24,824 bases of DNA. Origin: a virus. Below, in pieces: positions 108-21,500 of this stretch (position 1 is its first letter; each line of letters opens with the position of its first letter). The position numbers were made by a program, and so were the translations under genes. The DNA is taken from the IMG/VR virus record IMGVR_UViG_3300021400_000064, positions 1 to 24,824 of that record. One strand, 5' to 3'. Below the pieces are notes generated by a model. It did no database searches, was not told where the DNA came from, and saw only the letters and a program-made list of their open reading frames with translations.

Positions 108-2553
108 TAGGTTAAAAGAATACTATCACGGCTGGATTATGTTATCAGCAACAGAAACGATAGTAGGACCTGGTTAGAACCCAGATTATGATACGCCAAC
201 AGACCAAACCGCAGTTATTCCATTCGCGGAGCATATAAATATTACTCGTTTGACTGTTGATAGATTGTGGGCTTATGTTCCAGCAGAAGAAAGTTGGATA
301 AAAGCCGAAGATATCAGTTATGATTAGGCTGGTAAGTTATATAATGCTTTGGGTATATTCACGATTGACTTGGAAAATGATGTAGATTGGACTACCGTTG
401 AAAGCATTGATGATATTGGTATTAAACCTGAATTAAGGCATTTACATTATCACGATTATGCCAATTATGTCTATGATGGTGCTCTTACAAAAGAAGCATT
501 TAGTAATATACACGATTTAGAATTTGTCTATCCGGAGACGGTTTATAATTATAATTGTATATATTATAAGGGTAATAAGTTCGCGGATAATGAATTGGGT
601 AGAACCGCATTTAGTTGCTCTATAAGCGATTGGAACCCTGATTGGGACCATTTCATTGAAACAAGTTGGATTGTTGATGAAGATGAAAATGAGGTATTGC
701 CAGAGTTGTATCGTGGCGCACCTATTTCTCTAAATTGGGATTACTTTGGCTTTGACCGCAACCTCTTCAAGCCAACAGGATACTATGATGGTATCTATTT
801 ATGGAACCCACATCCATGGGATGAAGAGCATCTATACTTCACTTTTGAAGAATTAGTGCGGACAGGCACATAGTATGTTATTTACCCATTCTTCGACCCA
901 CACGCTTATAAGTATTGGCATATGGTAAGATTAAAAACCGTGTCAGACGCAGGTAATGTTAATCAAACTCAATTCTGTTTAGACAGTGATAACACTTATA
1001 CAGAAGGTGTTTGGGAAATTGAACCGCCTATGAAGCGTGTTTCAACAGACAGATTGTATAACCAAGACTGGGGCGCTGGTTGGTATAATGATACAACAAC
1101 GCTACCAGCGGGTTGGCATATAAATGCTAATACAAGCATTTCACCATTATATTTCTCATTAGGTGGTGGCCCATTCGCAAATTATACAAGTAATTCTGTA
1201 AATGGAAAAATTAAGTCCGTAAGCAGAGACGGATAGGGTGCTATCTTATATCCTGACGATTATTTCAAGGATTTATTGAAGAGCACTAATTCCGCGCAAG
1301 TAGATAGTGCGACTGCTGAATTGGCATTGCGCGAAGAATTGGGCTTATTAAATATGATGGAATATGAGCCAAACGGTTATTACCGCATTACAGGTAGCGC
1401 GATTTCACCATATAGTGATTTGTTCTTATCAAAGATACCTTATCATAACGAATATGAACCCAAGTATTACATTTCCACTATTTATAATCGTTATTTCGGT
1501 TAGAATAGAACAAGTGGTTATGCTAATAAATGGCGACCAATTACATCACAGCATTTGTCTCTATATCAACAGGAATGGAACCCGATACAGATGAAGGGCG
1601 ACCCAAATGCGTGGAGAAGCAAACCCTATATTGGTGGCGGCGTCTATCACGGTGTGCGCTCTTATTTAAATGGTATATTAGAGCATTACTATGTGCCAGT
1701 TCCAAAAGGAATGTGGTATGAGTGGGATGGCGTCAAGAGCCAAATCACAGGTAATGGCTTATTCGATTTAATTACGGGCACGCTAAAAACTGATGACCCT
1801 GGCTGTGTTTTCACATATGATTATCGTAGCGCTGATGGTGAAGAACCATACGAGCATCGTTATGATTATTTCAGTGGATGGCAGTATGATGAAACCACTA
1901 TTCAACCTGCTATGTGGTATCAAATCACAGCATCAACAGACACATACAATCAACCTGACGCACTTGCTAATAAAATTCGCACATTATCAAATGGTTTGTA
2001 TCTACCTGTTGATAAACAAACACAAGATACAGAGAACCGTGTATAGGGCTTATGGTATCATAGTGCTAACTACTGGTTCAAAGTTAATAGCAACATATCT
2101 ATTGCCACGATGACTGGCACGCTAACAACAGAAAAGATTACAGCCGCAGTTATTCCAGATACGAATACAACTATCACGGTATTCAACTATGATGCGTATG
2201 ATAATCCTGATGGTAGCGCAACTTCAACAAGAGCGAATAATGGTAGTTTCTTACTCACGAGTTATTACACTTATAAAGTAGGGAATAAGACATTATTATT
2301 CAGCGGAAATAAGTGGTATGATATGGCGCATACCTCATTAGCGCACGAAGAAATGAATAATAATTATGTAGTAGCAGTAGATAGGTTAAATTATTACACC
2401 TATCCTATTGAAAATGATACATATAAAGCAGGATAGTATTTGGCTGGCGACCGTCTGTTTGTTCCATATCGCTCTTCTCGTAATACGAATTGGTATTACA
2501 CAGGACAGGGTTGGGTCAAATACGCAGATGGTAATTTATCATTAGTTGAATGA
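1..2553 (+). CDS. C-terminal part of the giant (~2,890 aa) tail adhesin/fibre protein; it continues from 18598..24717 across the junction.
   Basis: Frame 1 is open from base 1 to TGA 2551-2553 and is broken only by TAG (175, 325, 871, 1234, 1501, 2044, 2434). Track ORFs 349-873, 922-1236, 1276-1503, 1555-2046 and 2110-2436 all lie in this one frame. SH3b-like segments are present (VYTIVEERNGWGRLKEYYHGWIML; RLFVPYRSSRNTNWYYTGQGWVKY). Confidence 0.8.
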
Positions 2554-2564
2554 GGAGTGGTAAT

Positions 2565-2918
2565 ATGACAAGTAATTACTATCCTATTGTATTAGATGAG
2601 CGTGAAGGCAGTTTCAGTATTACAAATACTGGGACTGCCCCATCCCCTTGTGTAATCACGATAGTCCCAAGAGTAAGTTTTATCACTATGAAAATTGAAG
2701 GGTTAAGTGAAGACCCTATTGTTTTATCATAGATTGCCGCAAATGATGTTGTTGTTATAGACGGTGAATAGCGTGAGTTCCGCGTAAATGGCTCACTCGC
2801 TTGGGATAAATTTGATGGCTGGCAGTTCCCGCACTTGGAGCCTGGCATCAACACAGTAAAAATTACGAACTCTAATATGATGGATATTGAAGTTGCGTAT
2901 AACGCGAGGTATATCTAA
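2565..2918 (+). CDS. Small tail protein resembling the C-terminal (galectin-like) domain of siphophage distal tail proteins (Dit).
   Basis: GAGGAG RBS at 2552-2557 lies 7 nt before the ATG. Peptide: ITNTGTAPSPCVITIV...VVVIDGE[TAG]REFRVNGS...FPHLEPGINTVKITN. There are 2 in-frame TAG (2730, 2769) and the gene ends at TAA 2916. An alternative ATG at 2550 has no RBS. Confidence 0.7.
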
Positions 2919-2919
2919 T

Positions 2920-3948
2920 ATGATGAAAGTTTATGACACCGAGCATCAGTTTTTAGGTTTTTTCACTGATGGCTTACGGAATGTATATACAACAGAAACA
3001 TTGGAAACAGGGACCAAAAGTCTCTGTTTCCAAATGCCCTGTTTAGATAAATATTTATCATTAGTGCGGGAAGAACATTATATAGAAACGCAAGATTATG
3101 AATATATCGTAAAAGAATTGGTATTAGAAAAGAATGATTTCTTTACTGTCTATTGCGTTGCGAATATAGAAGAATTAAGTGGAACCACTTTTAGTGTATT
3201 TGATTGTTTTGAAAAGAACCCCGAACAAGCATATACCTATTGTTTGTAGCCTGTTCCAGCGTGGAGTTTAGATTATCAAAGTCAAGTAGCAACGGTCCTA
3301 ACTTTATAGACCGCTAATGTTTCTGCTCTTGAAATGATAAGAACTGTTGCGGAAATGAATAGCCAAGAGTTGTGGTTTGATGCCAAGAATAAGGTATTGC
3401 GCGTTTATGATAGAATTGGGCGCGCGAAGAGTAATATATACTATTCAAATGAATTAAAATTGCGGCAACTGTCAAAACAGTCATCAACTTACGATTATGC
3501 TACTGTTTTATATCCTATTGGTAAAGATGGATTAACTATTGAGAGTGTAAATAATGGTAGAAACTTTATTGAGAATTATAGTTATACCAACAAGAGGATA
3601 GTAAAGTATTGGTATAATGATGATATTGATGTGCCTGAACGCTTATTAGGTGCGGGGTAGGATTATTTAGATAGTATTGCTGAACCCGTGAGTAGTTATA
3701 AAGTATCGTTGAGTGAATTAAATCCCGACACACGATTGGGCGATACGATTATGCTTGTAGATAATATAAAGAAATTAAAGCAAAAGAAGCGAGTAGTAAA
3801 GATAGTGGATTTCCCATTTGAACCCGAGCGCAGTAATGTTGAAGTATCAAATAGGCAAGCAAATTTTGCGCGCACATTTGTAAAGCAACAGAAGGTATTA
3901 GATAAAGAAATCAAGTATATCCGCTCGGTAATCAAAAATATTTAGTAA
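2920..3948 (+). CDS. Baseplate hub / tail-associated protein N-terminal region (Tal-like, phage minor structural protein N-terminal family).
   Basis: Track ORFs 2887-3249, 3334-3660 and 3688-3945 are in one frame, joined by TAG at 3247, 3307 and 3658. Motifs: MKVYD..., LYPIGKDGLTIESVNNG, LGDTIMLVD, PFEPERSNVEVSN. A fourth TAG at 3943 is followed directly by TAA 3946. Confidence 0.8.
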
Positions 3949-4011: not shown

Positions 4012-4179
4012 ATGAGAGAAATAATACAAAACCTAAATAAAGCATCACTCGCTTCTGCTACTGGCATTTCTTATAGTAGATTACGCAAATATGCGGCAGG
4101 TATCATTTAGAACCTGACTGATGAAGAGAAACAAAAGATACGAGATTATCTATTAGCATTAGCAGAAGCGTTTAGATAA
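4012..4179 (+). CDS. Small helix-turn-helix protein (55 aa).
   Basis: GAGAGG RBS, then ATG 4012. Peptide: MREIIQNLNKASLASATGISYSRLRKYAAGII[TAG]NLTDEEKQKIRDYLLALAEAFR, ending at TAA 4177. One in-frame TAG (4108). Confidence 0.6.
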
Positions 4180-4208
4180 CTATATTATTTGAATAGGAGA
4201 CAAAATAT

Positions 4209-4820
4209 ATGAATGAAGAATGGAAACTTATTACTTGTTTAAAAAAACAGGGGTTCTCAAATCGGCAATATGAAGCATCCAATTTGGGAAGAATTAGAGT
4301 GAAAAATACAGGCTATATAATGAAACCCGCCACGCACAATTCTGGCTATATAATGTTTAGATACTCTTGGTATGATGTGAATGGAAAAAGATAGTAGGCA
4401 TTTGAATTATGGCATCGGGTTATCGCAAAAACTTGGATACCTAATCCAAATCACTTACCGCAAATAGACCATATCAATAGAGATAGACTTGATAATCGTG
4501 TTGAAAACCTGCGTTGGGTAAGTAATAGTGAAAACCAACACAATACTGATAGAACACTAAAAAAGAAAAAACTATTTAACCGTCGCAAGCCAGTATATAA
4601 AATAGATAATAATTTTAATATCGTAGATGTATTTGAAAATGCTATAATATGTGCGGAACAAGAGGGAACAAGCATACGATAGATAAATAGGATGTGTAAT
4701 GGTGATAGGCATCCTAAAAAGGGCGGTATTACTTATACATAGACATCTTTCCTTGAAACAAAAGGAATGAAGTTGATAGAAGATAATGATGGACCGCGCA
4801 TAATAAAAATTGACAACTAA
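4209..4820 (+). CDS. HNH homing-type endonuclease (203 aa).
   Basis: The N-terminal segment EEWK...[10 protein letters not shown]...MKP..NSGY continues through a TAG-TAG pair (4392-4397) into [44 protein letters not shown], the HNH core. Two more TAG follow (4680, 4740). The gene ends at TAA 4818. Confidence 0.85.
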
Positions 4821-5289: not shown

Positions 5290-5472
5290 ATGACATACAA
5301 AAAGATTTTTATGAGACCATTGGCTGTTGAACTTCGTAAATTAGGTTATAGAATAGTTCAAGTTGAACCTAATTACCGCAAACCAGAATTAGATGTTTAT
5401 ACATTTGAAGTGTCTGGTAATTTTATGGTCGATTTTGCGCGGCTATCTAAAAATATTCGTCAGCAGAAGTAA
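5290..5472 (+). CDS. Small hypothetical protein (60 aa), DUF5659-like pattern.
   Basis: AAGGAGAAG RBS. Peptide: MRPLAVELRKLGYRIVQVEPN...VYTFEVSGNF. No TAG. The family assignment is from memory only. Confidence 0.55.
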   Translation: MTYKKIFMRPLAVELRKLGYRIVQVEPNYRKPELDVYTFEVSGNFMVDFARLSKNIRQQK

Positions 5473-5492
5473 GCCAGATAGGAGATAGCCAT

Positions 5493-5915
5493 ATGATAAG
5501 ACAGATGCCAGTATTAGCCCACAAGGGTGATAAGTTTGTTGCGGGACAAGCATTTTGGAGTATCCCGCAAGATATTCTAATTTATGCTTTCAAAAATCTT
5601 ACTTATAATGAAACGCAAGTTTTAGTTTATTTAATTGGTAATAAGCCCAAGTGTGAAGAAGAAGATTATAAAGGTTGGCAGATTAGTAATATCGAAGATT
5701 GTGTGAGTGGTAATGATAGAACCATTCGTGCGGCAAGAGCCACTTTGGCGCAAATGGGGTTTATTCGTCAAATACCTAATCCTGATGGTAAAACATATTC
5801 TACTATTGTTGTTGATTTTGATTGGATTAGAACAGTAGTAAGAAATGGTTGGGATAAAGAAACAACAATAAAAAACTTTGGCGGTTCCCCAGAACCGCGA
5901 ATTGGTAGCAAATGA
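5493..5915 (+). CDS. Winged-helix replication initiator-like protein (140 aa).
   Basis: AGGAGA RBS. Peptide: NETQVLVYLIGN...ISNIEDCVSGNDRTIRAARATLAQMGFI (wHTH-like). The 3' end and downstream flank carry the iterons. No TAG. Confidence 0.6.
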   Translation: MIRQMPVLAHKGDKFVAGQAFWSIPQDILIYAFKNLTYNETQVLVYLIGNKPKCEEEDYKGWQISNIEDCVSGNDRTIRAARATLAQMGFIRQIPNPDGKTYSTIVVDFDWIRTVVRNGWDKETTIKNFGGSPEPRIGSK

Positions 5916-7966: not shown

Positions 7967-9355
7967 TTGATAACTTTATCTCGTGATACAGAATTGACGC
8001 CCGAACTTATAAAAAAGATTGTGGATACTCATAAGACAAGTGAGTTGCCGCGATTAGAAAAATTAAAGAGATATTATGAAACCAAGAATGACATACTCAA
8101 CCGACAGATGGCAGACAGCACTAAACCAAACAATAAGATTGCGAATGCTTATGCCAGTTTAATAACGAGCACGCTTGTTGGTTATTTTGTTGGTGAGCCT
8201 ATTACATATACCGCAGATGATAAACAAATGATGAATGAACTTCAACTTTTGTTTGAGTATAATGATGAGGCTGATGAGAATGCGGAATTGGCAAAGAACG
8301 CAAGTATTTATGGCGTTGCGTATGAATTATTATATATGGAGCAACAGGATGAAGGTATGGGCCGCCCGATGTTGCGGTTTCACACCTTGGATACGAGAGA
8401 ATGTGTGCCTATTTATGATGATACTATCGAACATAATCTAATTGCCTTCATTCGTTATTATACAACGAAGAATGTGTTGAATGATACTGATTTGCTCGTG
8501 GTAGAGTTAATTACAGATGCGGATACGAAGAGGTATGAAGCAACTGTCGCAGGTGGATTACATTTAGTTGATGAAGTGCCGCATTATTTTGGTATGGTTC
8601 CTGTTGCTATTTACAAGAATAACGAAGAGTTAATTGGTGATTTTGAGCCAGTTATTAGTTTAATAGATGCTTATGACACGATGGAAAGCGATACGGTAAA
8701 TGATTTTGATTATTTTGTAGATGCTTATTTAGCACTCTATGGATTTACCGCAGAAGCAGAAGACATTGTGAAGATGAAAGAAAACCGTGTTCTGTTGATG
8801 GATGAGGGCACAAGTGCGGAATGGCTCATCAAGAATACTGATGATACTAATGTCGAGAATATGAAGATTAGGTTAGATAAAGATATTCATAAGTTCTCGC
8901 ACTGTCCTGATATGAGTGATGAAAACTTTGCGGGGAATAGCAGTGGTGTTGCTATACAGTATAAGTTATTAGGCACTGAAAATCTTATTTCTATTAAAGA
9001 GCGCAAGTTTAAGCGTGGATTACAATAGCGTTTAGAACTTATCGCGCAGATGTAGGGATTGATGGGCGCTAATTTTGATTGGCGTGCTATTGATATAATG
9101 TTTAGACGGAACATACCTGCTAATTTGAGTGAGATTGCTACTGTTGTTAGCCAGTTGAAGGGTATAGTGTCTAATGAGACATTGTTAGCACAGATACCTT
9201 TTGTTGATGATGCGACTGCGGAGCAGGAGAAGTTGAATGATGAGAAGGAACAGGATAAAATGAATAATCCGTTCTTCCAGTTGGATTATGAGACTAATGC
9301 TATGTAGCGAAATAAACAATCACAAACGCAGACAGACGGTCAAGAGGTTGAGTAA
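7967..9355 (+). CDS. Portal protein (SPP1 gp6-like).
   Basis: AGGAGG at 7952-7957; TTG 7967 is the best-spaced start, with GTG 7961 as an alternative. Peptide: ELPRLEKLKRYYETKNDILNR...KPNNKIANAYASLI. Continues through TAG 9026, 9053 and 9305 to TAA 9353. Confidence 0.88.
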
Positions 9356-10269
9356 TGAACCCTGACAAGAAAAAACAATTAGCAAGGTATTACGCCACAC
9401 AAGAAAGAGTGCTTGAAGCGTTAGCATTAGCATATGAATAGACTGATGAGTTATATAAAATACTAAAAGAAATCACTGATGAAATGTGGGAAGATTTGCG
9501 GCCCGCCATTCAAGAGTTGATAGAAAAGTATTTAGATAACCCTCACGCGCAAATTGATTTGGATAAGTATCCCGCGATTAGGATGGCGATTAGAGAGATT
9601 GAGATGCGCCATCATCAACAGTTGTTGGAATACTATTGGATGGGCTATAATGTAATTACAGAGAGTTTGGTAAGCACTTATCAAAAGGCGAGTTTAGATG
9701 CGTATTAGATTATGTCTGTTGTTCCTACTTGGCAGAATTAGGAGATAAATCCTGTCATAAGACAATAGGCAGAAGTGCGAATTACAGACACTTACATTAC
9801 AAGCAATAAGTTGCCTATTCCGTGGTGTAGTGATGGTAAAGTATATTCGTAGCGTTTATACGGACACATTGCTAATTTTTAGTCTAAATTGAACTATGTA
9901 TTGAGTGAAGGTATCGCCAAAGGGCGGGGAATGGATTGGATGATGTAGGCTTGGCGCAAATTAGTTGGCGCCACTGCTTACGATGCCGCGCGCCTGTTGA
10001 AGACAGAGACTATGGCTTTTTATAATGAGGGCTTGAAAGATAGTTATATTGAAATGGGCGTTGAGTATGTTGAGATTGTGGGCGATGCCGAATGCGGTGG
10101 AATATGTTTAGATTATGTTGATGGCGACCCGATTAGGATAGTTGATGCCGAAATAAATGTAGAGTTGCCGCCTTATCATCCTAATTGTGCTTGTTCTTTT
10201 GTTGCGTGGGAAGAGACTGAAATCGTAGAAAATCCAGAAAATACATCAGGGAGCCAAGATGAAGAATAA
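9355..10269 (+). CDS. Head morphogenesis protein (Mu F / SPP1 gp7 family).
   Basis: TAATG stop-start overlap. Track ORFs 9484-9708 and 9997-10269 share frame 1 and are joined by TAG codons (9439, 9706, 9739, 9766, 9850, 9880, 9946 in total). Peptide: WCSDGKVYS[TAG]RLYGH...ELPPYHPNCACSF. Confidence 0.85.
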
Positions 10270-10294
10270 TCAGGGGTAAATGTAGAGTTTATAA

Positions 10295-10373
10295 GGCTTC
10301 TCGGTTTTTTAAGTTGATACCCTGTCTCTTAATCAGGGTGTCCGGGGTTCGAGCCCCCCCCGAAGGCGCACCA
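10295..10373 (+). tRNA. tRNA-like element (degenerate or non-canonical). The loop reads CUU and is not a CUA suppressor.
   Basis: Canonical T arm: GGGG-TTCGAGC-CCCC (10344-10358). The anticodon-like stem CCCTG/CAGGG (10320-10324 / 10334-10338) encloses TCTCTTAAT. A 5-nt variable region is present. The acceptor pairs at only 5 of 7 positions (GGCTTCT vs CGAAGGC), and the D-arm region is a T-rich stretch with no convincing stem. Confidence 0.35.
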
Positions 10374-10380
10374 TACGGAA

Positions 10381-10406
10381 AAGCCTCGCAATAGCGAGGC
10401 TTTTTT
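10381..10406. terminator. Rho-independent terminator (partly bidirectional).
   Basis: aagcctcgc pairs with gcgaggctt, followed by TTTTTT on the + strand. An A-run precedes the stem, giving a weaker U4 terminator on the - strand. Confidence 0.75.
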
Positions 10407-10423
10407 CTATACCGTAGCAAAAC

Positions 10424-10452
10424 TTGACACCGTGATTTTTTTAGTCTATAAT
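10424..10452 (+). promoter_or_regulatory. Consensus sigma70/sigmaA promoter P3.
   Basis: TTGACA (10424-10429), a 17-nt spacer, TATAAT (10447-10452). It fires antisense through the minus-strand gene toward scaffold and capsid. Confidence 0.75.
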
Positions 10453-10695
10453 TCAAATCAAGGGCTCCGCATAGTTCTTCACTTTATCTGTTAGTGTATA
10501 ACCGAGATATTTTTTAGCATAATCAAATTTCATAGTGGTGAGGGAATGCGGCACCTCTTTACCATCTTTCTTGCGGGTGTGCTTTTTGTTGCGCTCCTTT
10601 TGTAGCCAAAGCAAAGCATCTTTATCTTTGCGCGCTACCGCGTCTGCGATGAGGTCATCGAGAGACATTGCCATTATTTCCTTCGTAGTAGCCAT
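10453..10695 (-). CDS. Hypothetical 80-aa protein, the only minus-strand gene (possible regulator).
   Basis: AGGAGGTG RBS (complement of 10701-10708), ATG start, intact ORF ending in TGA. No TAG. Basic central segment: KERNKKHTRKKDGK. Confidence 0.65.
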   Translation of the reverse strand: MATTKEIMAMSLDDLIADAVARKDKDALLWLQKERNKKHTRKKDGKEVPHSLTTMKFDYAKKYLGYTLTDKVKNYAEPLI

Positions 10696-10715
10696 ATAAC
10701 CACCTCCTGTTGGTG

Positions 10716-10744
10716 ATTATAATACACGATGACCGCATTGGCAA
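10716..10744 (-). promoter_or_regulatory. Strong minus-strand promoter for the 80-aa gene.
   Basis: On the - strand: TTGCCA (10744-10739), a 17-nt spacer, TATAAT (10721-10716). Confidence 0.65.
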
Positions 10745-10842
10745 GTATAAGTTGGGCGAAATTAGCACAAACGCTTAATTATAAATACAAATAACAATAG
10801 AAGAACGAACTCATAGTAAGGGCGTTCGAAAAGGAGAAAATT

Positions 10843-11418
10843 ATGGAAGATACTAATGATAAGGGTATGGAAAACACGCAAACTCCTAATGAGGGTGCGG
10901 AAACCCCAAAGACTTATACAGAAGAAGAAGTTCGTGCGTTATTACAACAAGAGGGAGACCGTAGGGTATCCCAAGCGTTGAATAAACAGCGTAAAGAGTT
11001 GGAGAAGAAGCAAGCCGAAGCAGAGAAACTTCGTGATATGGATGAGAACCAGCGCCGCGAATATGAGTATAATAAAAAGGTTGCGGAGTTGGAGCAGAAA
11101 GAGCGTGAGTTCGCTATCGCGCAGAATAAGTTAGAAGCATCGAAGGTGCTCGCTAATAGAGGTTTGCCAGTCCAATTTGTAGATTATATAGTTGCTGATG
11201 ATGCTGATACTATGATGGCGAATATCGACACATTTGATAAAGCATTTAAGAGTGCGGTTGCTGATGCTGTTGCTATTCGTATAGCGCAGCCTACGCCGAA
11301 ATCTGGTTCAGCAACACAAACAGGAATAACAAAAGAGCAGTTTAGAAAACTAAACCTGGCTCAACAAGCAGAAATATATAAAACTAATCCCACATTATAT
11401 AGGGAATTGATTAGTTAA
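10843..11418 (+). CDS. Scaffolding protein (DUF4355-like).
   Basis: AAGGAGA RBS. Charged coiled-coil peptide TEEEVRALLQQEGDRRVSQALNKQRKELEKKQAEAEKLR. It sits immediately upstream of the capsid gene. All 15 Gln codons are CAA/CAG; none is TAG. Confidence 0.8.
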   Translation: MEDTNDKGMENTQTPNEGAETPKTYTEEEVRALLQQEGDRRVSQALNKQRKELEKKQAEAEKLRDMDENQRREYEYNKKVAELEQKEREFAIAQNKLEASKVLANRGLPVQFVDYIVADDADTMMANIDTFDKAFKSAVADAVAIRIAQPTPKSGSATQTGITKEQFRKLNLAQQAEIYKTNPTLYRELIS

Positions 11419-11434
11419 TAAGGAGTGTATATAT

Positions 11435-12370
11435 ATGGCAGCATATCCAGATAGCCACATTATTTATGAAAATGAAGTATTAGAAAATAAAATCACCGAT
11501 TTACTTATTACTGCGGTTGATTTATCCAATTATATGACTGTTGATAACAGTCTTACACAGAACGCAGGTATGACGAAGGTTATTAACCGTTATACCGCTT
11601 CTGGTAATGTTGAAGACCTTGAAATGGGCGAGGGCAACACCAAGGGTATTGAAGTTTCGTTTGACCCAGTTAGTTATGTTGTTGGCACCACACAGGGACG
11701 CTTTGCTTATTATGACGAGCAGGCTATGACTGACCCAATGGTTGTCGATGTTGGACTTGATGGTTTAGCAAAGACTATGGTGAATGATTTCACCACAAAG
11801 GCTATTGCGGAGTATGAGAATGCCGACCTTGGTATTGAACTTAACAGCGGTTGGAGTTTTGATGCTGTTGTTGATGCTATCGCAAAGATGAACCTTGAAG
11901 ATGAAAGTGGTTTATTCTTACTTATTTCTCCTGCGGACCAGGCCGCTTTCCGTAAGGCGCTCAAAGATGACCTCAAATATGTTGAGGGCTTTGTCCGCAC
12001 TGGTTATATCGGTAGTGTTTGCGGTGTTCCTGTAATCGTATCCAAGGCTGTTGATGCTGGCGTTGGTTTCCTTGCGACTAAGGACGCGATTACCTTATTC
12101 ATCAAGAAGGCTACTGAAATCGAGCAGGAGCGCGATGCTAATGTTCGTAAGAATACAGTTTATGCTCGTAAGGTTGCTGTTGTCGCGCTTACTGACGCTA
12201 CGAAGTTAGTAAAGATTGATGGGCGTGGATATTCGGTTGCGGAGACCTCGATTTCTACTAATCCTGCGGCAGAAGGTTTATTCGAAAAGACAGAAAATGG
12301 TGCTTATGTTCCTTCCAAGGATACTACTGCTATTAGTGGCAAGACTTATTACACACAGGATAGGGACTAA
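11435..12370 (+). CDS. Major capsid protein (HK97-fold type).
   Basis: AAGGAG RBS and a 311-aa intact ORF after the scaffold gene, followed by a terminator. No TAG. The call rests on position and composition; the family is not verified. Confidence 0.8.
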   Translation: MAAYPDSHIIYENEVLENKITDLLITAVDLSNYMTVDNSLTQNAGMTKVINRYTASGNVEDLEMGEGNTKGIEVSFDPVSYVVGTTQGRFAYYDEQAMTDPMVVDVGLDGLAKTMVNDFTTKAIAEYENADLGIELNSGWSFDAVVDAIAKMNLEDESGLFLLISPADQAAFRKALKDDLKYVEGFVRTGYIGSVCGVPVIVSKAVDAGVGFLATKDAITLFIKKATEIEQERDANVRKNTVYARKVAVVALTDATKLVKIDGRGYSVAETSISTNPAAEGLFEKTENGAYVPSKDTTAISGKTYYTQDRD

Positions 12371-12380
12371 TTTAAATAAT

Positions 12381-12417
12381 GGCTCACGGTTTTAACCGTG
12401 AGCCACACCTTTTTTTT
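12381..12417 (+). terminator. Rho-independent terminator after the capsid gene.
   Basis: ggctcacggt pairs with accgtgagcc, followed by a T8 tract 5 nt downstream. Confidence 0.7.
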
Positions 12418-12436
12418 ACTATGAGGAGGACAAAAA

Positions 12437-12733
12437 ATGCTTGATAGATTAAAATTACTCCTTCATAAAGAAGATGATGATACTGTTGATGAATTATTAT
12501 TGTTGCTAATCACACTTTGTAAAGATGAAGCATACATTTATTGTAATTTAGATGAGTATGATGAAGCGTTAGATTATATCGTAATACAGATGGTAATTGA
12601 ACGCTATAACCGCATTGGTAGTGAAGGAACAACCGCGCAAAGTGCGTCTGGCGCATCCGCAACATATGATAGTTTTTATAGTAAAAAAGTAGAGCGTATG
12701 CTAAATAAGCACAGGAAGGTGAAGTGCGTATGA
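12437..12733 (+). CDS. Head-tail connector protein (gp6-like).
   Basis: GAGGAGG RBS. Peptide: LLLLITLCKDEAYIYCNLDEYDEALDYIVIQMVIERYNRIGSEG. No TAG. Confidence 0.65.
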   Translation: MLDRLKLLLHKEDDDTVDELLLLLITLCKDEAYIYCNLDEYDEALDYIVIQMVIERYNRIGSEGTTAQSASGASATYDSFYSKKVERMLNKHRKVKCV

Positions 12734-13035
12734 TAAAGAGAGATACACTTACCCGTATTCTACTTCAACCTATTGATGATGAAGAGGGCGGCAAGTCATT
12801 TGATGAACCGCAAGTAATGGAAACTATTCCAGCACATATTTCTTCTGGCGCATCTTCTAATGAGATTTCTATGTATGGTGTAAAGACACAGTATGTCTTA
12901 CATACTACTACTGATGTAAAATTAGATGACCGCGCAATTGCGAGGTATGTATGGAGTAGCAAGGTATTCAAAGTTATGAGACAAATCAAATCAGGCAACG
13001 AATGGTTTGCCACTCTATTAGAAGTGAATGAGTGA
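12730..13035 (+). CDS. Head closure / head-tail adaptor protein.
   Basis: ATGA overlap with the previous gene; the size and position are typical. No TAG. Confidence 0.5.
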   Translation: MIKRDTLTRILLQPIDDEEGGKSFDEPQVMETIPAHISSGASSNEISMYGVKTQYVLHTTTDVKLDDRAIARYVWSSKVFKVMRQIKSGNEWFATLLEVNE

Positions 13036-13046
13036 GGAGTGGTGAT

Positions 13047-13376
13047 ATGCTTACATTTGATAACGATACAAAGAAAATCCGTATGGTAGTAAAAGATACG
13101 GGCAGTATTACCGTGAATGTAGAAAATTATACTCTTAATGAGGGTGATGAAGTAGTATTCACAGTAAATACGGGGCGTGAGATTGAAACGCCACTCATTC
13201 AAAAGAAAGTATCAGTATTTGCTGATGGTAAAGCCGTTATTCAGTTATCTGTTGAAGATACGAATGTCAAACCAGGCACTTATCTTTATGATATTCAAGT
13301 TAATGGCGCAGATGGCAGAGTTGATACAATTGTTGGACCCGCAAAGTTCGTATTTGAAGGGGGCATAACATTTTGA
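13047..13376 (+). CDS. Hypothetical structural protein (beta-rich, Ig-like?).
   Basis: GAGGAG RBS 7 nt upstream of ATG 13047. No TAG. Confidence 0.5.
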
Positions 13377-18598: not shown

Positions 18599-21500
18599 TG
18601 CTAATCAACGGTATAAATATAAATACCCTTGGTGTCAAATTATATGATAGAGTTATTAACTCTAACACTGTTGATACTACACAAGAATGGTTAGATGGTG
18701 ATATTCAGCCCACTTTTGTTAGACAGTAGGACCGTTTCAAAACTATGACACTTGCGTTCCTTGTATTAAATACTGATGAGGAAAACGCGTTTTTGCGTAT
18801 AAGCCGTTTAACGCAAGCATTACGCAAAGCGACATTATAGTTTGATGATATTAGTCTTACTTTTGATACAACATTAGTGGGCGCGGCAGAACCTGAACGC
18901 TTAAAGAACGGTAATTTTATCGTTAGATATACTCTAAACAGTGATTACGCGTAGGGTAATCGTGAAATATATACGACAGATGCCAAAGCAACAAGCGCAT
19001 TTAGGCTCACCGTTCTTTACTACAAAAACACAACTCAATTAGTCGGGCAGGATGTATATACTATTCGTGCTGGGGCTTTTGATGTTGGAACACCAACATT
19101 AAGTTCTATTGGTATTGATGTGGATAAATACCGCGAACAACACTATAATGCTGGTGCCGCAACTAATATGGGTTCGATGGAACTTACATATGAAAATTTA
19201 CAGTCTCTTGGGACTTTAATTATTAACTATGCGCCTGTGCGCTACAATCTCACACTTGCTTACTATATGAATAGTGGAGAGGGTTATAATGAGACTTTAC
19301 AAGAGACGATAACCTTTACACATCCACAACTTCAAAATATTAAGACCATCGGGCAACTATTTGATGTAAATACTTACCGTCCTGATGGTTATCGTGCGAC
19401 TATTGATTATAGCGGACCTCTTACTGTTGAAGGACTACTTGCGGCATCTCCTATTGCGGTTATGTATGATGTAGTTCAAAACGAACAGAGTAAGAATATA
19501 ACAGTAGTTTATCGTAATGAAAATGACGCTGGCGGTTATGATATTATAGATAGTGAATTATTGAATGTGCGTGAAACCGCTATTACTGATGGTAAAACTT
19601 TACGCGACATTTTCAACCTTAACGCATATAAGCCTAACAGCCTATACTATTTTGATGGGACCATTGAGGGCTATAATGCTGATGACCTTATTACTTATGC
19701 GGATTTGAATACAACTTATTACATCAACTACCGCAGACAAGAGCACACTATCTATGTTGAGTATTATGCTGGAACCTATCCAGATTGGTATCGCCTCACT
19801 AATATTCCTCTTACAGTAAAATATAAAGATGCGTATGAAGAAGAGTTTAATATTACAGACATTGGTTTGGATTTAGACCGCTATCATACAGCAGAGTATC
19901 AAAGAGGACAACTTTATAATGGCGATAACTTTGAGACATTTGATGATGTAATTACTACTGGCGTTCTTCAAGTATATTATGTGCCTATTGATTTCACTAT
20001 TAAGGTTCGTTATAAGAAAGATGATGCGAATGAATACACCGAAAAAGATGTAGTAATCAACGCATTACAGTTCTTTGGCGACCCAGTATTAAGTGATATT
20101 ATAGACATAAATACTGACCGTCCAGAAGGATATCAGTTAGATTTAGAAGAGAGTTATAACGGTGAAATTACACTTTCCGCACTCACAACGAGTTCTCCAA
20201 TATATATTGTATATGAAGAAATACAAGAAGTGCGGCAAAAGAATATCATAGTTAGGTATAAGCAACAGTTATCAAGCGCCTATTCTACCATAAATACTTC
20301 CATTTTGGTTATTAATGAAGCAGACTGCGTTGGTGGCGTGCGGTTGCGCGACCTTATCAACTTAAATCTCTATCGTCCAGATTACTATGATGGTGGTATC
20401 TTGAATGGCGCGAGTGAGAGTGCTTTATTGACTTTTGATGATTTACTCGCAAATTATGAAGTATTATACCGTGCTTCTACATACAACACTCCTGTATATT
20501 ACTATACGGATGATGTTGATGAGCGTAATTGGATTGGTAGTTCTGTAATTAATTATACAGTCCTTGATTTTACAACAGAAACAACACTGTATGATTTAGG
20601 GTTAGACCCAAATCAATATAAACCTTCATACGCCGCAGATGGTGTAGTTCAATATAATGGCGCTATTTCATTTAGTGCTTTACGCGGCTTATCAAGCATC
20701 AACATTGTGTATGATAGTATTGAAGAGCCAGAAGACCCAAGTGGTATTGATTATCCGCACAGGTTCTTATTCTTACAACATAATGATTTAGGCGCATATG
20801 AAAATCAGCATCCAGAATGGACTATGAACCACGCTTATATTAATACAGGCGTAAGCGTCCAGGATATGTCTAAATTGACAGTTATTATGGAGGCAAAGCG
20901 TGTTGATGAATATGTGGCGCCACATACAGTAAATGCGGGCTATGCTTACTTATTCGGTAGTTCATCTGCTCTTGGTTAGTATTATATGCGGTTTAACAAC
21001 CAAACGATGTATGGCACTAATCTAACGGGTGTAAATACTTATGAAGCAAAAGCAGGTAATACCGTAAATGCGTTAGTGCTGACAGAGGAGAACGCTATTG
21101 GTTGGAGTGAAAATTCTGGTATTTACTCTACATAGAATTATAATGGCTATTCAACAGCCACATTTACATATAGCAACCGTATGCCGACAGAGCACGCGCA
21201 AATGCCATATCCGCTTTATCTGTTCGCTAATAATAACAGCGGTTCCTATGCTGATGGACTTGCGGGATGGGGCATTTACAGTTGTAAGATTTTGTATGAT
21301 GGATAGTTATTGCGTGATTTTATCCCCGTTCAGTATTACGACAAGATTGGCGATAAGATTGCGCCAAGCAACTGTTTATATGATAAGATTAGCCAGAACT
21401 TCTTTGAAGATGCTACTGGCAAGAACAGTTTTAATATCATTGATGATGAGCGCTACACTGATACAAACCCAGAACATCAAATAGGTTCGTTCTATGTAAA

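Follow-up and report, generated by a model that had tools for sequence, protein, structure and literature searches.

A tRNA-like element in a TAG-recoded phage genome is probably the relic of a tRNA-Lys attachment site

Tyrosine integrases of temperate phages and islands can target tRNA genes and cross over in the anticodon-loop sublocation; the mobile element then carries the 3' part of the tRNA, and the gene is restored at attL. This class of tRNA-gene integration sites was reportedly described by Williams in 2002. The other systems closest to the genome studied here are the TAG-recoded temperate gut phages Topaz and Garnet, whose genomes measure ~22-34 kb (Topaz 22 +/- 3 kb; Borges et al., bioRxiv 10.1101/2021.08.26.457843). 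Curated Topaz and Garnet prophages (23.7 and 24.4 kb) are delimited by the integrase and a host tRNA gene, and the hosts are Firmicutes (Oscillospiraceae) or Prevotella using the standard code (bioRxiv 10.1101/2021.08.26.457843). TAG is read as Gln in the structural genes of these phages, and the integrase is free of in-frame TAG (same reference). Of the TAG-recoded phage genomes, only 40% had a detected suppressor tRNA for TAG (Borges et al., bioRxiv 10.1101/2021.08.26.457843).

The window, i.e. the whole stretch of viral DNA that was analysed (24,824 nucleotides), carries an exact 107-nt terminal repeat, which identifies it as a complete circular genome of ~24.7 kb. The terminal repeats of two related contigs, A (25,718 nt) and B (24,746 nt), measure 127 nt in each. 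Both are circular permutations of the window, colinear with it but opened at different breakpoints, and the colinearity runs across the point, inside a 2,890-aa gene, at which the window itself is joined. A repeated domain of this giant gene could in principle have led to a false circularisation and so have hidden a tRNA; this was rejected in view of the circular contigs A and B, with their other breakpoints and their colinearity across the window junction. The terminal repeats and the colinear relatives therefore mean that absence of a tRNA applies to the complete ~24.7-kb genome. When TAG was treated as a sense codon, the open reading frame coverage of the plus strand rose from 15.8 kb to 25.3 kb. 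The in-frame TAG codons of the plus-strand stop-to-stop frames totalled 83, in agreement with the figure of about 83 given by a previous reading of the sequence alone (the sequence-only reading). In alignments with relatives the TAG codons of the window were matched by TAG (64) or Gln (63), and by Glu, Ser and Lys 12-13 times each. TAG is clearly a sense codon here and, as it aligned mainly with TAG or Gln, the whole clade reads it as Gln.

No tRNA or tmRNA gene was found in the window by ARAGORN at default settings, and Rfam returned zero matches to it at gathering thresholds. In a permissive scan of 10230-10430 the Rfam tRNA model (RF00005) was unlisted even at E<=10. At a 90% threshold ARAGORN produced one match in the window, a poor 70-nt 'tRNA-Lys(ctt)', which was the element at 10295-10373 that had been proposed to be the sole tRNA-like element of the genome; it was indeed the sole one. 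At an 80% threshold many noise matches appeared within genes, none of them with CUA. A custom scan of the window for anticodon hairpins with a CUA loop gave at best 4/5 AT-rich pairs, inside coding sequence. The CUA anticodon hairpins, as well as T-loop hairpins elsewhere in the window, were rejected as weak AT-rich matches inside genes. ARAGORN, Rfam and the hairpin scan thus agreed with the earlier statement that the genome lacks a tRNA(CUA), and this can be extended to the complete genomes of relatives. tRNA genes were absent from contigs A, B, L016 and L017 (ARAGORN and Rfam) and from the loci of L003-L005, L010-L012 and L015 (ARAGORN); in all, no tRNA gene was detected by ARAGORN or Rfam in the clade, over three complete circular genomes and parts of others. 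Megablast of the whole window against GenBank phages gave no match. Short blastn matches were seen between the element and mycobacteriophage intergenic regions.

Table 1. Features of the tRNA-like element and its surroundings in the window
Feature	Position	Strand	Remarks
P-arm motif AATAATCAGGGGTAAAT	10265..10281	+	holds first AATCAGGG copy, 10268-10275
Variable P-arm spacer	10282..10325	+	sequence unconserved among relatives
Anticodon-like stem	CCCTG 10320-10324 / CAGGG 10334-10338	+	encloses loop TCTCTTAAT
tRNA-Lys(CUU) positions 32-76 block	10326..10373	+	presumably attP/attB common block
CTT	10328-10330	+	within anticodon-like loop
T arm, GGGG-TTCGAGC-CCCC		+	sequence inspection
C8 run	10354..10361	+	three C's beyond intact CGGGG-TTCGAGC-CCCCG T arm
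Intrinsic terminator	10383..10406	+	GCCTCGC-AATA-GCGAGGC, then T6; A tract upstream (RNA fold)
Integrase promoter	10424..10452	+	TTGACA-17-TATAAT, 12/12 match, perfect sigma-70 consensus
Truncated convergent-ORF remnant, 80 aa	10453..10695	-	~104-108-aa ORF convergent with int in relatives
Third AATCARGG copy, AATCAAGG	10456..10463	+	P' side, just after -10 box; putative integrase-binding site
Deletion junction	10464..10466	.	1,092 bp missing relative to contig A

Inspection of the element confirmed that the anticodon-like stem and loop, the CTT, the T arm and the C8 run noticed previously were all in place (Table 1), and that CUU (Lys) is the only canonical reading of the loop TCTCTTAAT, as had been suggested. 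The sequence from 10326 to 10373 follows the order loop CTCTTAA, 3' strand of the anticodon stem, variable loop GTGTC, T arm, AAGGCGC, A73 and CCA, and the element ends at 10373 with ...GAAGGCGCACCA, i.e. GAAGGCGC-A-CCA. The similarity of this 3' half to bacterial tRNA-Lys, noted before, proved to be real: nucleotides 10326-10358 were identical at 33/33 positions to the bona fide tRNA-Lys(CTT) of L006, from C32 onward, and the acceptor end AAGGCGC-A-CCA was the same as that of the real tRNA-Lys(CTT) of L047, whose 5' strand is GCGCCTT. In the alignment of relatives the tRNA-Lys block was invariant or changed in a compensatory manner, and only the part of the element that is common with the host tRNA was conserved.

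The 5' part is not tRNA-like. It forms no D stem, as stated before, and the acceptor pairing at 5 of 7 positions, which had been mentioned alongside, turned out to be no better than that of shuffled arms: a 6/7 match to the acceptor 3' strand was obtained with 52-57% of shuffled upstream arms, and the apparent acceptor pairing in the window is at chance level. By the same shuffle test the 5' part did not rise above chance in tRNA-likeness in the window, L001, L032, L041, L044 or L035. A conserved acceptor stem with compensatory changes, which by eye looked promising in L003, L004 and L032, was rejected because the shuffles gave chance pairing in all but L003/L004, and because homologous arm positions carry the putative 5' strand inconsistently. 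The L003/L004 arms have 7/7 acceptor pairing (reached by 5-12% of shuffles) and D-arm-like residues, which suggests that some arms may descend from a whole captured tRNA gene. A full-length tRNA was also considered and rejected, as ARAGORN in default, intron and mitochondrial modes and Rfam yielded sub-threshold and mutually inconsistent calls. Two findings that would have spoken for a tRNA, a tRNA(CUA) anywhere in the genome or a covariance-model fold of this locus into tRNA-Lys, were both absent from the ARAGORN (default, relaxed and mitochondrial) and Rfam results.

The C8 run lies, as had been recognized, at a register-critical place. Its three extra C's are specific to the window (alignment columns 116-118) and break the register of T stem and acceptor; the T stem is a perfect 5-bp helix in every relative and in every real tRNA compared. 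With C5 for C8 the sequence would read CGGGG-TTCGAGC-CCCCG-AAGGCGC-A-CCA, a perfect T arm followed by acceptor strand, discriminator and CCA. The extra C's were absent from other contigs with the same acceptor end, and no intact (C5) version of the window site was found in viral contigs; the C8 run could be an assembly error. When C8 was edited to C5 in silico, the element was still not called by ARAGORN at the default threshold, indicating that the problem is the 5' part and not the C run alone. In the unrelated viral contigs L007 and L008/L009, AT-rich non-tRNA DNA is followed by this tRNA-Lys block (anticodon stem through CCA), which ARAGORN does not call there either; such a layout is usual for an attP aimed at a tRNA gene.

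Relatives of the window were collected through the minor-head protein, the conserved promoter and the integrase. Ten of them carry the integrase gene (int): L001/contig A, L003, L004/L005/L045, L030, L032, L041, L042, L043, L044 and L046. All those with contigs spanning the locus (L001/contig A, L003, L004/L005/L045, L032, L041, L044 and L046) have a homologous element in the same location, just downstream of the minor-head gene, with a shorter tRNA-derived block in L046. The contigs of L030 and L042/L043 begin inside this block, L042/L043 holding the T arm onward only. The relatives share the order AATAATCAGGGGTAAAT arm, variable arm (~45-50 nt), core CT[CT]TTAATCAGGGTG with the rest of the tRNA-Lys 3' part, terminator hairpin, conserved promoter, a tyrosine integrase of 321-330 aa and a small convergent ORF. 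The relatives' integrase has no in-frame TAG; it matched PF00589 (E=1e-31) and SAM-like N-terminal domains, and no Pfam match was obtained N-terminal of the SAM-like domain. The T stems of the elements differ by compensatory pairs (CAGGG/CCCTG and TAGGG/CCCTA; CGGGG/CCCCG in the window's ancestor), and the acceptor strands vary as well. Such differences would be expected if each phage matched the tRNA-Lys of its own host.

There is no adjacent integrase gene in the window. Comparison by blastn with contig A showed that window 9301-10464 corresponds to A 454-1603 and window 10466-11500 to A 2696-3736; the contig A integrase is encoded at 1631-2614 (Pfam PF00589, E=1e-31). The deletion is clean, with homologous flanks on both sides. 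It begins directly behind the third AATCAAGG copy and the promoter, and it took away the whole integrase gene as well as ~27 codons at the end of the convergent ORF. The truncated ORF is 79% identical over 77 aa to the 108-aa ORF of L001. An ORF of comparable length on the minus strand comes after int in all loci, and the convergent ORF may be a partner of the integrase module. In contig B the deletion is larger and has spared no more of the convergent ORF than its promoter and first codons, and in L017 a different cargo occupies the same locus. The lysogeny cassette has repeatedly been lost in this clade, through deletion of a part in the window and of the whole in contig B. Contig B and L017 are TAG-recoded and have neither the element nor the integrase; the element therefore follows the integrase and not the recoding. 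The CCC insertion was seen only in the window, which lacks the integrase.

The integrated state could be inspected in a more distant relative. An integrase with 63% identity is encoded on a 166-kb Ca. Limiplasma contig (L035). Its attL consists of an intact tRNA-Lys(UUU), recognized by ARAGORN and Rfam (69.6 bits), directly upstream of int and followed by a terminator. At attR, ~4.6 kb downstream, the 3' part of the tRNA is present as a 49-nt direct repeat with one mismatch, TGACTTTTAATCAGGGTGTCCGGAGTTCGAGTCTCCGATGG[G/A]TCACCA. Of the two copies, the distal one fits the 5' strand of the tRNA perfectly, as expected since it would be the displaced original host end. Upstream of the attR repeat stand AATCAGGGGTAAATG, the arm motif also found at 10268-10282 of the window, and GGCTTTCCCG, which is homologous to the GGCTTCTCGG of the window. 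Circularising the L035 element reproduces the order seen in the phages, and at a 90% threshold ARAGORN gives for attR the same sub-threshold 'tRNA-Lys' call as for the window element. Close integrase homologues (76-85% identity) were all located on free contigs of ~23-26 kb, and among the integrase homologues found there was no integrated copy of the window's own clade. A search of species-representative genomes with the capsid protein returned only more distant relatives, without the tRNA-Lys block. One more distant relative that was inspected for coding, L018, uses the standard code.

The flanks of the element have counterparts in these sequences. The P-arm motif overlaps the TAA stop codon (10267-10269) of the minor-head gene and is kept in the int-carrying relatives that span the region as well as upstream of the L035 attR repeat. 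The spacer includes GGCTTCTCGG (10295-10304), which had been taken for a 5' acceptor strand, and a CCCTGT that is a degenerate left half of the core inverted repeat. Homologous sequences, GGCTTC[GT]CGG / GGCTTTCCCG, occur in L044 and at the L035 attR beside different acceptor 3' strands. On the other side, a hairpin with a T run is found at the same position in all relatives and also after the attL tRNA of L035. The promoter is conserved as TTGACACCNTGATTTTTTTAGTCTATA in L001, L003, L004, L005, L030 and L032 and, with substitutions, in L041-L046, in each case directly upstream of int; in the window it has been orphaned by the deletion and now points at the scaffold and capsid genes. Three of the five matches to AATCARGG in 24.8 kb fall on the plus strand within 196 nt here (1.3 are expected genome-wide). 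They start at 10268, 10331 and 10456, that is in the P arm, the core and the P' arm, and the copies, the third among them, are conserved in relatives. The three copies are likely to be integrase-binding sites.

The architecture of the site, its association with the integrase, the loss of int from the window by deletion and the attL/attR structure of a family member, each directly visible in the sequences compared, therefore point to an orphaned and decaying attP. The region 10265-10465 is, with a probability of roughly 0.88, the relic attP of a tyrosine-integrase cassette, which lost its integrase gene by deletion and would have no role in TAG decoding; the term relic is used because of the missing adjacent integrase. 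The intact site would have comprised the 3' part of a host tRNA-Lys, beginning with the anticodon loop and ending with CCA, and behind it a terminator of its own, and the integrase would have recombined within the anticodon-loop region of the host gene. Strand exchange would take place in or next to CTCTTAA, which is flanked by an imperfect inverted repeat derived from the anticodon stem. At attL the phage-borne tRNA 3' part and terminator would rebuild a working tRNA-Lys, and the original 3' end of the host gene would be displaced to attR. On this model the upstream 'half' is phage arm DNA and would not be a tRNA 5' half. The presumed target is a host tRNA-Lys(CUU) gene ending CGGGGTTCGAGCCCCCGAAGGCGCACCA; the junction would be expected within CTCTTAA, with the AATCAGGGGTAAAT arm adjoining the displaced host 3' end. 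The terminator would end the reconstituted tRNA gene after integration and, in the phage, the packaging-gene transcript. In the window, the 1,092-bp deletion just after the integrase promoter would then have taken the integrase gene, and the orphaned site appears to be decaying, by the CCC insertion that broke the T arm and by an A-to-T change at the position matching tRNA nucleotide 31. The suppressor reading TAG as Gln would come from outside the genome, or would be something that tRNA finders miss.

Of the four identities that the sequence-only reading had offered for the element, the attP-like tRNA 3' fragment is strongly supported by the comparison, whereas decayed tRNA, RNA processing signal and non-canonical tRNA are disfavoured. 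It is very unlikely that the element is the decayed pseudogene of a full-length phage-borne tRNA-Lys, unrelated to integration. ARAGORN at the 90% threshold does call a tRNA-Lys(ctt) of 70 nt in the window and one of 75 nt in contig A, and the L003/L004 arms show 7/7 acceptor pairing, faint D-arm-like residues and, in L004, an Rfam tRNA score of 20.2 bits. However, in the window, L001, L032, L041, L044 and L035 the tRNA-likeness of the 5' part is at chance, the arm is homologous to the arm of the real attR in L035, where it stands beside a different acceptor strand, and conservation is limited to the part common with the host tRNA; moreover, the link of the element to an integrase is constant, and where the cassette is missing the element is missing as well. 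Still more doubtful is a tRNA-like RNA signal, an RNase P/Z site or a 3' stabiliser/terminator module, between the packaging and capsid units. tRNA-processing enzymes can recognise T arm and CCA motifs, and the element would be suitably placed for such a role between the minor-head and the scaffold gene, with a strong intrinsic terminator downstream and a perfect promoter after it. The same head genes nevertheless flank the locus in contig B without the element and in L017 with other cargo, and since these two lack the element it is not primarily a processing signal. In addition, the acceptor/T minihelix that RNase P/Z would need forms no better than by chance and is interrupted by the CCC insertion, and conservation coincides exactly with the block identical to the host tRNA. 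The terminator is probably functional, but as part of attP.

A non-canonical but functional tRNA taking part in decoding, including TAG suppression, is barely conceivable. The genome and all relatives are without any other tRNA, and relaxed ARAGORN settings yield, for the L003/L004 homologues, a tRNA fold of 88 nt whose anticodon is CUA ('tRNA-Pyl(cta)'). Against this, no loop of the window element contains CTA; its anticodon would be CUU (Lys), while TAG aligns with Gln. The relaxed calls differ between relatives (Lys, 'Pyl', His, Leu) and are accompanied by junk matches on the opposite strand. In the CUA model position 33 is a C, the D arm is poor and the variable region, of 12 nt, lacks structure; L041 has the CCCTAAA too but does not preserve the anticodon stem of the model. 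The TAG-recoded contig B and L017 do without the element. It is extremely improbable, too, that att sites of the L003/L004/L045 type encode an 88-nt non-canonical tRNA(CUA) of which the window copy is the dead remnant. For the window element itself a decoding role is practically excluded, as it has no CUA. The suggestion that this odd RNA might decode TAG fails on the same ground and on the missing D arm, the chance acceptor pairing and the broken T arm.

With the relic attP as the preferred reading, the element, which has no CUA and tracks the integrase and not the recoding, can be struck from the candidate sources of TAG decoding that the sequence-only reading had listed. The expectation that a TAG-recoded genome should carry a tRNA(CUA) was too strong, given the 40% reported by Borges et al.; with suppressors in ~40% of recoded phages, the missing suppressor is a known general gap and not a peculiarity of the window. 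Since ARAGORN and Rfam detect no tRNA in the clade, the reading of TAG may depend on a factor acting in trans, and the Gln reading may be supplied by the host or by a co-resident element. How TAG is read as Gln in standard-code hosts without a detectable phage suppressor is an already documented question, which is the same after this analysis. What the analysis removes is a false lead: the element is no cryptic decoder, and annotating it as a tRNA or pseudo-suppressor is unwarranted. What it adds concerns the mode of life of these phages: they are or were temperate, with an integrase gene kept clear of TAG and with tRNA-Lys genes as the probable target. What remains of interest is not the element but the absence, throughout the clade, of a tRNA that the tools detect, and this absence makes the clade a compact test case for the reading of TAG.

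The phage amber suppressor tRNAs (CUA) of crAss-like, Lak and other phages resemble the element in their tRNA-like appearance and in occurring in TAG-recoded phages; the element differs from them in having no CUA, no cloverleaf, no above-threshold ARAGORN or Rfam score and no link to recoding across relatives. Compared by description only, the window, a circular genome, is like Topaz and Garnet in its small size, in reading TAG as Gln and in having a tRNA-type attP, and its relatives are like them in having a TAG-free integrase. The differences are that the target is a tRNA-Lys, with CUU or, in more distant relatives, UUU, instead of Met or Thr, and that the window genome is without an integrase. 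The agreement with attP sites in tRNA genes extends to the parts of the site: the block of the window corresponds to the tRNA gene from its anticodon loop up to the 3' terminus, an inverted-repeat core is provided by the anticodon stem, a terminator follows the block, the integrase gene is adjacent in relatives, and for the 63%-identical integrase of L035 both attL and attR are present, with the 3' part of the tRNA directly repeated. Unlike active attP sites, the relic copy in the window has a deleted integrase and a disabling CCC insertion, and unlike usual attP cassettes it has an unusual location, between the minor-head and scaffold genes. In kind, the element is an ordinary tRNA-type attP, a known feature of temperate phages.

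The locus between the minor head and scaffold genes is a hotspot. Contig B (L002 4196-4330), a relative without integrase, has lost attP, the integrase gene and most of the convergent ORF that follows it in other relatives. In L017, another relative without integrase, two tandem small minus-strand ORFs occupy the place of the lysogeny cassette (20070-20700). The cassette seems to have been lost repeatedly in the clade of the window.

Among the integrase-carrying relatives, two Logan contigs of approximately 25-26 kb (L042, 1-160 and L043, 1-161) have their first bases within the tRNA-derived block, starting from GTCTAGGGTTCGAG. In both, the assembly break is located at the att core. A break would be expected at this point if the assembly branches there, either through the coexistence of integrated and free forms or through the host tRNA gene. 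In L046 (5300-5400) the tRNA-like block is limited to CTTACTTTTAATCAGG, which corresponds to a tRNA-Lys(UUU)-type anticodon arm; beyond it the sequence diverges and the T arm is absent. The att site of L046 is either a different one or a rearranged one, with the integrase family and the promoter unchanged.

When searched with ARAGORN at the 80% threshold, the attP elements of two integrase-carrying relatives (L003 10954-11041 and L004 11023-11110, the latter also present in L045) were folded into an 88-nt 'tRNA-Pyl(cta)', that draws on CCCTAAA from the arm. In this model position 33 is a C, the D arm is weak and the variable region lacks structure; L041, a further integrase-carrying relative, did not yield the same fold. 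The fold is probably a chance product. The phages in which it occurs are TAG-recoded and have no other tRNA.

The 5' UTR of the integrase gene contains an inverted repeat, CCTAATCA ... TGATTAGG (L001 1590-1640, L003 11125-11170, L004 11195-11240). Its 5' arm is the third copy of AATCARGG, the putative integrase-binding motif, and its 3' arm shares bases with the ribosome-binding site, AGGAGG. The hairpin could gate translation of the integrase.

An integrase with 61% identity is encoded at 10001-10969 of L037, an ENA scaffold of 177,835 nt. It comes from a further small siphovirus-like genome, also TAG-recoded, with endolysin, terminase, portal and capsid genes, which is present on 16-18-kb contigs as well as within the 178-kb scaffold. 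In the scaffold no intact tRNA was found within 10 kb.

In-frame TAG codons are unevenly distributed among the genes of the window (see the table). The terminase gene contains 14, and many of those in the collagen-like gene, which is divided into several genes in some relatives, fall in GPQ/GIQ-type triplets. Since the integrase deletion, a perfect sigma-70 promoter (10424-10452) lies directly upstream of the TAG-free block.

Features of the window, with in-frame TAG counts
Feature	Position	Strand	In-frame TAGs	Remarks
HNH endonuclease	4125-4820			sole family match beyond structural/packaging genes among the ORFs scanned (PHROGs/Pfam)
A few small ORFs	5290-5915			no family matches (PHROGs/Pfam)
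Scaffold, major capsid, head-tail adaptor and next two genes	10843-13376	+	0	
Collagen-like protein, ~800 aa	13373-15760	+	13	long G-X-Y repeats
Giant ORF, 2,890 aa	18598-24824 joined to 108-2553	+	16	

PHROGs/Pfam scans of most predicted ORFs of the window, the giant and collagen-like ORFs being outside the scans, revealed no replication, lysis or repressor families. Among the same scanned ORFs, PHROGs gave no match to a tape-measure protein. The giant ORF, within which the contig junction falls, makes up approximately 35% of the genome and has counterparts of 2,870-2,948 aa in relatives. It contains numerous repeats of approximately 100 aa and an SH3-like stretch, and its position, 3' of the major tail protein gene and two small ORFs, is the slot expected for a tape-measure gene.
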